Assembly (NCBI RefSeq): GCF_006345805.1
Contig: NW_021828531.1
Location: 1 to 8,175, forward strand
Reading direction: 5' to 3'
Origin: Octopus sinensis
Lineage: Eukaryota
Length of the DNA stretch: 8,175 nucleotides
Shown: positions 2,138 to 6,955 of the stretch, one piece after another
Numbering within the stretch: position 1 is the stretch's first letter
How the letters are laid out: each line of letters opens with the position of its first letter
The notes under the pieces: model-generated
Database searches by the model: none
What the model was told of the DNA's origin: nothing
What the model saw: only the letters and a program-made list of their open reading frames with translations
Position numbers and translations under genes: made by a program

Positions 2138-2220
2138 TATTTTGGAAATTGCTAATACGTGTGTTCCACACTAACCCATGGTCTCTGATCTGCTCCCGGG
2201 CAAATACATATCCGATATAT
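2138..2220 (+). repeat. 83-bp dispersed direct repeat, copy 1 (element terminus)
   Basis: 81/83 identical to 3824-3906; both run into (AT)n. Confidence 0.95.
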
Positions 2221-2330
2221 ATATATATATATATAATTAATCAATATAGGGTGGCAAAAAATTTTGTAGAATTTTTTTGCACCAGCGGCCTAGTGGGAAA
2301 AAAATTAAATAGTCAGACCATTTTAAGTTC

Positions 2331-2403
2331 AAATCAAGTCAATCTTCCATAGGCCCTTAGATTACTGACGAATCTAAGGGCCTATGGAAGATTGACTTGA
2401 TTT
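2331..2403. repeat. Perfect 33-bp inverted repeat with 7-nt loop
   Basis: AAATCAAGTCAATCTTCCATAGGCCCTTAGATT (2331-2363), loop ACTGACG, exact reverse complement at 2371-2403. Confidence 0.97.
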
Positions 2404-2457
2404 AATTTAATCAGGTTAGTTTACCATTAAACAGTAGATGAAACGGTGCTCGTATAA
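2362..2457 (+). ncRNA. Type I hammerhead ribozyme, intact core, large stem II loop
   Basis: TTA(2362-64)-CTGACGA(2365-71)-ATCTA(2372-76)...TAGAT(2435-39)-GAAA(2440-43); stem III ACG/gtgct/CGT; GUA triplet (2452-54); TAA (2455-57) pairs with TTA as stem I. Confidence 0.8.
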
Positions 2458-2583
2458 GAAATTACAGGGTAAATGTTTTTTAAATTTCTCCTGGTTTACG
2501 GAATTAATGTTTTTTTGCCGGTTTGAAGCTTTGGCTGTTATTTCTAGTGGGTGAATGGCCTATTATGGCCGTTCCTTGATGTG

Positions 2584-2592
2584 ATATATATA

Positions 2593-2733: not shown

Positions 2734-2831
2734 TGACCTGAGGCTATAGGAGAAGACATTTGTCCAAGGTACCCCGAGTGGGACTGAAGCCGGAACCATG
2801 TGACTGGGAAGCAAGGTTCTAACTGCACAGC
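2734..2831 (-). mobile_element. SINE family A 5' part, reverse orientation
   Basis: Reverse complement aligns to 399-495 and 5215-5312. Confidence 0.8.
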
Positions 2832-2969
2832 CATGGCAACGATAAAAGATGATTGTGCGAATGCTAGATACTAAGTTGCCAATGTGACCTTACCAAAATC
2901 AAGACCACAATAAAAATGCTGTGTTTTTTTTTTTATAATTTCTTTTTCTTATTTCTATTTACTTTCCAG

Positions 2970-3062
2970 GCAGACTACAAAATGAAGCTGACAGCAATCG
3001 ACAGACACACGAAGAAAGTCAATTTGTGTATGTCATGGGAGATGTCCATAAAAGCATCTTAA
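2970..3062 (+). CDS. Candidate terminal coding exon of a host gene (ADYKMKLTAIDRHTKKVNLCMSWEMSIKAS*), tentatively ML-domain / GM2-activator-like C-terminus
   Basis: Long polypyrimidine tract (~2925-2967) ending TTTCCAG|G; open phase-0 frame to TAA 3060-62 in the only non-repetitive island nearby. The DY-x-hydrophobic-K...D...C-hydrophobic pattern recalls the last two beta-strands of ML domains (weak, by eye). Alternative: a 58-nt internal exon using GTATGT at 3028. Confidence 0.45.
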   Translation, partial: ADYKMKLTAIDRHTKKVNLCMSWEMSIKAS

Positions 3063-3072
3063 GGATTGGGTG

Positions 3073-3113
3073 TTTCTCTCTCTCTCAATCTCTCTCTTTC
3101 TCTATCTATCTAT
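3073..3113. repeat. (TC)n/(TATC)n microsatellite
   Basis: Directly visible. Confidence 0.85.
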
Positions 3114-3700: not shown

Positions 3701-3906
3701 GCAGTGAAGTCGTGTCAGTGACGAGGACGCAGTTGGAGCAACGAAAATTTTAAGACCAAATAAATGTTCAAGTGAAATTAACGGTCTTTGTTTTATTTTA
3801 TATTGTTATACTTTTTATTTTTTTATTTTGGAAATTGCTAATACGTGTGTTCCATACTGACCCATGGTCTCTGATCTGCTCCCGGGCAAATACATATCCG
3901 ATATAT
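3701..3906 (+). mobile_element. Short non-coding element with degenerate hammerhead-like motif and the shared 83-bp terminus (copy 2 at 3824-3906), element 3
   Basis: GTCa-GTGACGA(3718-24)...GTTG/CAAC-GAAA(3743-46)-ATT-TTA-AGAC, then AATAAA (3759-64), a T-rich tract and the terminus shared with 2138-2220. Confidence 0.5.
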
Positions 3907-3911
3907 GTATA

Positions 3912-4209
3912 TCCCCGTGATCACCGCGACCGACCAGGCTATCAGATGTTGCTACACATCGCTGGTCACAATGCGCTTCGCATTGTTTTATCCTTCAAAT
4001 GACGCCACCCCGCTGGCTAAGCGAGCAGGCCAACAGAGGAAAGAGTGAGAGAAAGTTGTGGCCAAAGAGTACAGCAGGGATCGCCCCCCCCCCTGCCGGA
4101 GCCTCGTGGAGCTTTAGGTGTTTTCACTCAATAAACACTCACAACGCCCGGTCTGGGAATCGAAACCGCGATCCTACGACCACGAGTCCGCTGCCTAACC
4201 ACTGGGCCA
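3912..4209 (-). mobile_element. tRNA-derived SINE family B, near full length
   Basis: Minus strand begins TGGCCCAGTGGTTAGG (A box) and has GGTTTCGATTCCC (B box); GC-rich ~300-bp body inserted in AT-repeat context. Confidence 0.85.
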
Positions 4210-4215
4210 CATATA

Positions 4216-4566
4216 TATATATAAAAGGAAATGAAGAAAATGCTGACAAAATAATTTAAGTAATTTAAGTAATTTAATTAGGTGAAAGTTCTTTTTACCG
4301 GTTGCGTATTTGTTATGCTTATCAAAATATATTTTTTAAAGAGAGATTAGATTTCCTTTTTGATAGATTTTTTTCCTCTTATCTGATAAGAGGAAAATCT
4401 ATCAAAATCTATCAAAATTTATCAGAAAGAAACTCTAATCTCTCTTTAAAAAAATATGTTTTATAAGCATAACAAATACGCACCGTTAAAAAGAACTTTC
4501 ACCTAATTAAATTACTTAAATTACTTAAATTATTTTGTCAGCATTTTTCTTTCCTTTTTTATATAT
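4216..4566. repeat. ~350-bp imperfect fold-back palindrome (element 4), apex at 4384
   Basis: Left arm ~4216-4383 and right arm 4385-~4566 are reverse complements, e.g. GCTGACAAAATAATTTAAGTAATTTAAGTAATTTAATTAGGTGAAAGTTCTTTTTA vs its rc at ~4487-4542; centre TTTTCCTCTTATC-T-GATAAGAGGAAAA. Each arm holds a decayed minimal HHR-like motif. Confidence 0.92.
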
Positions 4567-4650: not shown

Positions 4651-5050
4651 CCTAAATATAGAAGAAAAGACTGGAATAGAATACAAAGGGCTTGTGATAG
4701 AGCAAACGGGGTGAACACGTGGTATAAAACCGACAAATATCAATGAGTGATGTTTGTAGAGGCCACAGCCCATGGAGAACTAATCCGTAGATTTAGGAAA
4801 GCTCTGAAGGTGACCAAACTCAATATTAAGATTGTTGAAAAGCCAAGGAGGAACTCCATCGGATAACAACTATGTAGGAGGCACCCCTTTGAGAATACCA
4901 TGTGTACCAATGATAACTGCATGGTATTTAGGATTAACTCTGACCTTAACTGCAGAACTAGAAATGTAGTATACAGCATAAGAACCATAGAAGGTGCTTG
5001 TAAAGACATGAATATGACATATATAGGGGAGACATCTAGGAGCTATAGGG
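4651..5050 (+). pseudogene. Penelope-like retroelement fragment: RT-thumb/linker end plus N-terminal half of GIY-YIG endonuclease (Naiad-like)
   Basis: Frame 1 reads PKYRRKDWNRIQRACDRANGVNTWYKTDKYQ*VMFVEATAHGELIRRFRKALKVTKLNIKIVEKPRRNSIG*QLCRRHPFENTMCTNDNCMVFRINSDLNCRTRNVVYSIRTIEGACKDMNMTYIGETSRS. VVY...YIGETSR GIY-YIG signature and Cys-rich linker; stops at 4744 and 4864. Clade call is from recalled motifs. Confidence 0.8.
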
Positions 5051-5214
5051 GTATGAGTCTCATACAGGGTGAATGTGTAGGTAGGCGTGAATAGAGATAC
5101 CACTTAAATGTTAAATTATTTAGGAATAACGGTTACAATCAAGGATTAGGGGATCTATTAGATTAAGGTTTAAAAATAAATTAAAGAATTAACAGTTATC
5201 TTCTAAGGTACTAA

Positions 5215-5633: not shown

Positions 5634-6128
5634 TTATGTGTGGTGGGTAAGTCTACATTTAGATTTATGGAAGAATTTAAAAGTGCGGAAGAATTTGTGT
5701 TTACACGTTGTGAAGGCTTCGTTGCGTCTGTTAAGCAATTGTGGTGAGTTATGGATTAAAATTTTGAGGGCTTCTTTTAAGCAGAATCCACAAGTGGAGC
5801 GCTGGTTTTGATTTGGGATGCCAGAATCTATCATAAACCAGGATAACCTATATTGTATTTTCCTATTAATTAGATGGTGTACGTAACTGGCTAGTGATGT
5901 GGAATTGCTATGCTCTTTATATTTAAATGAGTTTAAATGTGCAGTATATCTTTGTTTAAAAGTAGTGATCGATCCAATATAGTAGCTATCGGAGTTATTT
6001 AATATGTTGCGGACGGTGCATTGGTATACCACGTTGAATCTTCTGCATTGGGCTTGCTGCGTGCAGTCGGTCCCAGATCTGCAGTTGCAGCTATCTGTTC
6101 TAAGATGGTTAATTGGAGAGAGGGATGA
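5634..6128 (-). mobile_element. Penelope-like retroelement 3' coding end: uninterrupted C-terminal GIY-YIG endonuclease domain with Cys linker (Neptune-like), 5'-truncated
   Basis: The open frame extends upstream of the listed ORF: SCNCRSGTDCTQQAQCRRFNVVYQCTV...YYIGSITTFKQRYTAHLNSF...TSLASY...CGFCLKEALKIL...LLNRRNEAFTTCKH. GIY-YIG motifs with conserved R, E and N; no RT domain and no true start. Confidence 0.88.
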
Positions 6129-6209: not shown

Positions 6210-6955
6210 GGTCAGGTCGTATAAATATCTGGGAAGTACTGTAGACTCCAAGAGTACTCTTGGTGATGAAATCAATGTTAGGATATCTAAAGTGCTTTTG
6301 GAAAACTTTCCTATCGTTTGTGAGATGAACACAGAGTCAGTGTGAAAACTAAAATAAGTGTATACAAATCTTGTATTTTGAGAACACTTTTGTATGGTCA
6401 GGTCATATAAATATCTGGGAAGTACTGTAGACTCCAAGAGTACTCTTAGTGATGAAATCAATGTTAGGATATCGAAAGTGCTTTTGGAAAACGTTCCTAT
6501 CGTTTGTGAGATGAACACAAGAGTCAGTCCGAAAAGTAAAATAAGTGTATACAAATCTTGTATTTTGAGAACACTTTTGTATGGTCAGGTCATATAAATA
6601 TCTGGGAAGTACTGTAGACTCCAAGAGTACTCTTGGTGATGAAATCAATGTTAGGATATCTAAAGTGCTTTTGGAAAACGTTCCTATCGTTTGTGAGATG
6701 AACACAAGAGTCAGTGTGAAAAGTAAAATAAGTGTATACAAATCTTGTATTTTGAAAACACTTTTGTATGGTCAGGTCATATAAATATCTGGGAAGTACT
6801 GTAGACTCCAAGAGTACTCTTGGTGATGAAATCAATGTTAGGATATCGAAAGTGCTTTTGGAAAACGTTCCTATCGTTTGTGAGATGAACACAAGAGTCA
6901 GTGTGAAAACTAAAATAAGTGTATACAAATGTATTTTGAGAACACTTTTGTATGG
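6210..6955 (+). repeat. Tandem array, 4 copies of ~187 bp, derived from RTE coding sequence
   Basis: Units start GGTCAGGTC at 6210, 6396, 6583 and 6770 (186, 187, 187, 184 bp); few substitutions between copies. Confidence 0.97.

Follow-up and report, generated by a model that had tools for sequence, protein, structure and literature searches.

A perfect hairpin beside an octopus hammerhead core is probably the inversion junction of a retrozyme with Penelope-like insertion anatomy

The window analysed here, that is, the whole stretch of 8,175 nucleotides from Octopus sinensis, contains at positions 2233-2585 one insertion of a tandem repeat of ~488 bp, which carries one type I hammerhead ribozyme per unit and lies within a (TA)n tract. 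A hairpin next to the ribozyme core had been interpreted in the initial annotation as an antisense arm that locks an intact hammerhead. We conclude that this stretch is very probably a head-to-head insertion and that the hairpin is its inversion junction, likely produced by Penelope-type reverse transcription, beside the core of a ribozyme predicted to be inactive. The family to which it belongs is a non-LTR retrozyme with Penelope-like insertion anatomy, a known kind of element represented here by a new family.

The hairpin and the hammerhead core

The segments 2331-2363 and 2371-2403 are, as initially described, exact reverse complements that form 33 perfect base pairs around a loop of 7 nt (2364-2370), and they make up the sole perfect inverted repeat of complex sequence in the window with arms of at least 16 bp and a loop shorter than 60 nt. 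An RNA covering positions 2320-2470 folds to -66 kcal/mol (z = -11 compared with shuffled sequences). A microRNA identity for the hairpin was considered and rejected, as the Rfam microRNA matches were far under their gathering scores.

The hammerhead core was likewise confirmed. The layout comprises the CUGANGA box (2365-2371), a stem II of 5 bp (2372-2376/2435-2439) closing a hairpin of 58 nt, the GAAA box (2440-2443), a stem III (2443-2446/2450-2453) and the GUA triplet (2452-2454), with a predicted cut after 2454. Searches against Rfam gave no hammerhead match for this ribozyme, a miss likely due to the 58-nt insert in stem II, and its assignment therefore rests on motif, fold and covariation. 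A second hammerhead-like motif, with the core, a long hairpin, GAAAC and GUA, was observed on the reverse strand at 1094-1198; it shows an imperfect stem II within an AT-rich repeat remnant and is likely another Penelope-like terminal repeat.

Anatomy of the insertion

The features of the insertion and of the downstream exon are collected in Table 1. The two parts of the inverted arm are joined by a jump of ~180 nt at a short shared word.

Table 1. Coordinates of the insertion, its ribozyme and the downstream exon in the window
Feature	Positions	Strand	Description
Left (TA)n tract	2215-2233		Likely half of the target microsatellite
Inverted arm, outer part	2233-2336	-	Unit 332 to ~221, starting from the second of the two fixed ends of the family; 90% identity with the reference unit, differences chiefly gaps of 1-2 nt
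Inverted arm, inner part ('antisense arm')	2331-2363	-	Unit ~42 to 10
Head-to-head junction	2362-2363		Two bases fit both arms (overlap of 2)
Damaged type I hammerhead	2362-2457	+	Stem I of 3 bp (2362-2364/2455-2457), stem II with a 58-nt insert, stem III minus one base
Forward arm	2362-2585	+	Unit 1-224, 96%; stops at the family's main 3' end
Right (TA)n tract	2584-2683
Coding portion of an exon that is spliced and probably the last	2970-3062	+	Three runs; 97% identity with the C-terminal end of a hypothetical Octopus vulgaris protein of 194 aa

The same architecture recurs in a sample of 48 loci, obtained by grouping the 100 matches listed among 266 matches to the core and chosen for an intact core. 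A head-to-head inverted arm is present in 31 of the 48, and the outer ends of 28 of these 31 fall at unit positions 221-229 and 327-338, the same as in the window copy. Uninverted loci (n=17) stop at one of these fixed ends in 11 cases and at the other in 6. The two fixed ends are ~105-110 nt apart, and the junction points are spread over unit positions 1-440, with 8 of the 31 inverted loci being nearly symmetric.

Some additional observations concern the ends of the arms. A hairpin of 16 bp is predicted at unit ~277-315, just inside the outer end, within the unit segment 224-338 (e.g., L016:1233-1347), and this region is a candidate for a reverse transcriptase-binding or start signal. At seven loci the arms terminate on, or a short distance 3' of, the cleavage position predicted at ~unit 94 (unit 93 in L007; unit 102-119 in L057, L080, L040, L039, L063 and L085), and most arms of the family run through this site, so that cleaved RNA may be a minority template. 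Elsewhere in the window, a long inverted repeat at 4237-4547, with arms of 66 bp at 98% and inner arms of 69 bp at 86%, may be the head-to-head fold-back of another repeat.

A young family of hammerhead repeats

A search with positions 2362-2480 retrieved 1,129 candidates in the 2.72-Gb genome, and the other copies among 40 scored were 98-99% identical. An exact 23-mer of the core gave 266 matches and that of a sister subfamily 1,279, which together amount to at least 1,545 core matches. Copies at the 48 sampled loci range from monomers to tandem multimers of up to ~9 units, and nearly all of the sampled insertions are flanked by (TA)n. The element is young, with a median of 0.75% substitutions and only 2 differences in 200 scored sites for the window copy.

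At the family level, the units show the CUGANGA and GAAA boxes together with an NUH triplet, all enclosed by three helices of which helix I is the open one, as in type I hammerheads, and 97.7% of the cells are paired in an alignment of 15 hand-picked sequences (12 distinct). One pair in stem I and one in stem II differ in both bases from one subfamily to the other, and position 7 of the core, which is free, is variable, indicating that the fold is real at this level; each of these changes, taken from the same 15 hand-picked sequences, may be a single event. Stop codons break all six frames of the unit, and non-LTR retrozymes are characterised by tandemly repeated short units that encode no protein and contain a type I hammerhead each. 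Short pieces of the family also occur in contigs of probable RNA runs, a kind of contig that reveals neither strand nor circles. No paper on this family was found in a search of the openly accessible octopus literature.

The ribozyme of the window copy is damaged

The hammerhead had been described as intact, which does not agree with its comparison with relatives. The 8-nt 5' strand of stem I is present in 105 of 118 family cores and the window retains its last 3 nt only; stem I is thus reduced from 8 to 3 bp, with 5 of the 8 pairs replaced by the junction. Moreover, one base of stem III present in the relatives is missing, a variant that occurs at only 3 places of the genome. This missing base may be a consensus error, which is conceivable because a further omission of 1 nt is apparent at 2775 from a DNA run.

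Secondary-structure predictions, which do not include tertiary contacts, point in the same direction. When the active fold is forced, the relatives lie 2.8-2.9 kcal/mol above their own ensemble, in comparison with 8.3-11.2 kcal/mol for arm-free window RNA starting at 2362, 11.4 kcal/mol for RNA 2355-2470 and ~43 kcal/mol for arm-bearing RNA, for which cleavage is consequently unlikely. The predicted self-dimer through stem III also weakens, from -19.5 to -9.8 kcal/mol. The copy lacks a helix I of family length (3 of 8 bp) and, by the predicted energies, an accessible active fold, and its ribozyme is predicted to be inactive. Regarding the two mutually exclusive folds initially put forward, the arm is indeed predicted to exclude the active fold, but there do not seem to be two usable states, given the cost of the active fold in arm-free RNA (8-11 kcal/mol versus ~3 in relatives). 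The construct 2355-2470 suggested as an arm-less control would not serve as such either, since 9 bp of the arm are still present in it and are predicted to fold.

Fold-backs occur inside and outside the ribozyme

When the genome was scanned with a pattern for fold-backs with a short loop at the core, 10 places were obtained, one of them unrelated and nine belonging to the family. These nine represent 8 distinct junctions, with perfect arms of 33 (the window), 105, 35, 16, 39, 114, 58, 58 and 30 bp, and the core has been lost at the junction in four of them. At a control site outside the ribozyme (unit 183-192) the equivalent search gave 8 places, and the six inspected were all fold-backs of the family with perfect arms of 23-55 bp. 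At a second control site (unit 437-446) there were 0 fold-backs. Junction points in unit 1-20 numbered 7 of 62 against 2.5 expected (P = 0.013), a count that includes one alignment artefact and comes from loci selected for an intact core. From these 7 of 62 points and the lack of fold-backs at unit 437-446, a mild junction hot spot at the core is conceivable. Since the same geometry recurs at other core junctions and at a non-ribozyme site, protection of a host pre-mRNA by the arm, as initially proposed, is not needed as an explanation.

The perfection of the arms does not require selection. Private differences between the arms of inverted loci amount to 78 in 4,895 scored sites, from which the probability of 33 perfect base pairs is ~0.59. 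That the arms are clean among decayed neighbouring repeats is correct and, the element being young, uninformative. From the initial proposal of recent origin, gene conversion or selection, only the first is retained; the other two are needless at such a probability. The two arms in the window have in common a variant present in 2 of 118 cores, as would follow from a single template. Two near-symmetric junctions are worth describing here: a perfect hairpin of 362 bp with a 14-nt loop (L059:1368-2105) and an older fold-back (L031) with 5 of 5 rare variants common to its two arms, a pattern compatible with a divergent template or with conversion. Homogenisation of the arms is possible in such cases.

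Relationship with retrozymes and Penelope-like elements

Non-LTR retrozymes were defined by Cervera and de la Peña (2020, PMC7229834). The octopus family resembles the metazoan non-LTR retrozymes covered in the accessible portions of that work and of Li et al. (2026, bioRxiv 10.64898/2026.07.22.740005) in its non-coding and low-GC tandem units, in the single type I hammerhead of each unit and in its dispersed monomers to multimers, whereas its unit of ~488 bp is slightly above the quoted range of 150-450 bp. Head-to-head arms with two fixed ends are a feature of the octopus family that does not appear in those same portions of the two descriptions.

Partial tandems, inverted 5'-truncated copies, a tail of 30-40 bp and (TA)n targets are attributed to Penelope-like elements in the accessible text of PMC8557442. 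That of PMC11167929 describes how the Penelope-like reverse transcriptase (RT) cuts and extends both strands, with two RT start sites that bound the tail, and a hammerhead that needs protein; a palindromic helix III and dimers in Penelope-like hammerheads are treated in the corresponding part of PMC4209133. As far as these excerpts go, the octopus repeat is similar to Neptune, Penelope/Poseidon and Naiad in its partial tandems, inverted 5'-truncated copies, two fixed ends, (TA)n targets and self-complementary stem III of the hammerhead (PMC8557442, PMC11167929, PMC4209133). In contrast to Penelope-like elements as portrayed there, it has no ORF and its ends are ~105-110 nt apart and not 30-40, a spacing that speaks against a fit with the published Penelope tail; and unlike the minimal Penelope ribozymes, the family has a stem I of 8 bp and a stem II with a long hairpin. 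The available portion of a 2026 preprint derives retrozymes from Penelope-like elements in vertebrates (bioRxiv 10.64898/2026.07.22.740005). Altogether, the octopus loci combine partial tandems with an inverted 5'-truncated copy (31 of 48) and two fixed ends (28 of 31), at a spacing longer than the published tail. No paper on non-autonomous inverted hammerhead Penelope elements was found either in a search of openly accessible literature.

The 5' inversions of L1 elements that arise by twin priming also show a head-to-head junction at a few shared bases, formed during insertion. The octopus family is similar in this junction, but its putative second priming site is fixed and its arms can overlap in sequence, and it is this overlap between the two arms that gives hairpins.

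A proposed origin of the hairpin

From the anatomy of the insertions and the published work, we propose that a Penelope-like RT/GIY-YIG protein would nick both strands of a (TA)n tract and that two cDNAs would be primed at the two fixed sites on a multimeric or circular repeat RNA, these priming steps being a proposal. Both cDNAs would stop early, and their ends would be joined at a few shared bases; stops at about the same unit position would lead to a perfect hairpin with a short loop. In the window copy, ~180 nt of the inverted arm would have been skipped, either during copying or by a later deletion, leaving the 33 bp. The so-called antisense arm can in this way be regarded, with considerable confidence, as what is left of the second, inverted arm of the element itself, in all likelihood produced incidentally by the insertion. 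The copy as a whole is most likely inactive and neutral, carried along passively within an intron.

RT/GIY-YIG elements are abundant in the genome (14,003 candidates). An open frame of 804 aa (L143:1604-4015, forward strand), with RT, a zinc-finger linker and a GIY-YIG-like domain, belongs to an abundant Penelope-like family that we take to be Neptune-like by its domain order. The autonomous partner was looked for at 36 loci of one RT/GIY-YIG family, where, a neighbouring copy aside, nothing genuinely matched the unit. The window itself contains GIY-YIG-like remnants at 5634-6128 (reverse strand; weak Pfam GIY-YIG match, E 0.086) and 4867-5094 (forward strand; no match), as well as four tandem copies of 187 bp at 96% (6210-6955), a stretch that resembles a LINE RT fragment.

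Host gene context and alternative explanations

The presence of a spliced forward-strand exon downstream of the ribozyme, with an acceptor near 2969, was borne out. In three probable RNA runs, each from a different study, contigs align to 2968-3069 and run on upstream into sequence foreign to the window, so the acceptor at 2968-2969 is used; the RNA status of these runs is a guess, as none is on record as RNA. The host gene, which is uncharacterised, gives deep contigs in the three of them. Read by eye, the upstream contig sequence plus the exon corresponds to the C-terminus of the 194-aa hypothetical protein labelled Octopus vulgaris and, if the contig is right, the element lies in sense orientation in an intron of an expressed gene, before this exon. 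The upstream exon has no exact match in the assembly, only paralog-like ones at 43% and 33%; Pfam hits of the host protein (DUF1598, DUF1091) fall under the cut-off, and it has no solved relative. The exon is flanked by a 95-bp direct duplication at 96% (2132-2226 and 3818-3912), and the contig of one DNA run fits the variants of the second copy.

A real host exon on the same strand leaves room for selective filtering. A passive filter of this kind, in which the junction arose by chance and the insertion owes its persistence, in sense orientation within an expressed gene's intron, solely to having a disabled ribozyme, would agree with the position of the element upstream of an exon spliced in three studies, with the predicted inaccessibility of the active fold, with the weak excess of junctions near the core and with the depletion of retrozymes reported for Xenopus introns in the accessible part of the 2026 preprint (bioRxiv 10.64898/2026.07.22.740005). 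We nevertheless consider it unlikely: only one locus is involved, a site outside the ribozyme has fold-backs at about the same frequency, ~42-44% of the Xenopus copies are still intronic according to the same text, and Penelope hammerheads are often weak or protein-dependent in the portions seen of PMC11167929 and PMC4209133. Its extension into a rule for the family, by which sense-strand introns of expressed genes would keep only hammerheads disabled at insertion, with the fold-back as a ready-made safety lock that leaves the pre-mRNA whole, is improbable to the same degree.

Still less probable is an assembly or long-read artefact at the junction, even if the window makes up an entire small, unplaced contig (8,175 bases), in which the consensus seems to be off by 1 nt at one nearby position at least (2775). 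The inverted arm contains unit 225-332, which is absent from the forward arm and therefore cannot come from a read folded back on itself, and both ends match those of 28 of the 31 inverted loci. The assembly holds no second allele or empty site for 2820-3075. None of the contigs listed for four DNA-type runs at 90%, or for one at 98%, bridges the junction, which is no evidence, as contigs drop variants and hairpins; the insertion site is also spanned by no listed contig of other runs.

Finally, a regulated switch, whereby a long RNA would fold the arm and stay whole and an RNA starting near 2362 would fold an active ribozyme, hardly deserves credence despite the predicted mutual exclusion of the two folds and the intact catalytic core bases, given a stem I of 3 bp, an arm-free RNA predicted to prefer other folds by 8-11 kcal/mol, the weakened stem III self-dimer, the absence in sense of the segment of the unit found ahead of the ribozyme in relatives, no known start site near 2362 and a geometry that recurs with arbitrary junctions, so that the arm is not specific to the ribozyme, as the fold-backs at the control site indicate, nor are both states usable by the predicted energies.

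Implications

Under the preferred reading of the hairpin as an inversion junction left by insertion, it matters little on its own, being one of many such junctions of a mobile repeat, and the family is the more useful result. More than 1,500 near-identical ribozymes, two fixed ends separated by ~108 nt and frequent head-to-head arms constitute a Penelope-like insertion signature. The hundreds of junctions in the family offer material to learn how inversions form, and also a test set for selection against intronic self-cleavage. Moreover, the anatomy of the family supports, in an invertebrate, the link between retrozymes and Penelope-like elements that the accessible part of the 2026 preprint argues from vertebrate phylogeny (bioRxiv 10.64898/2026.07.22.740005).
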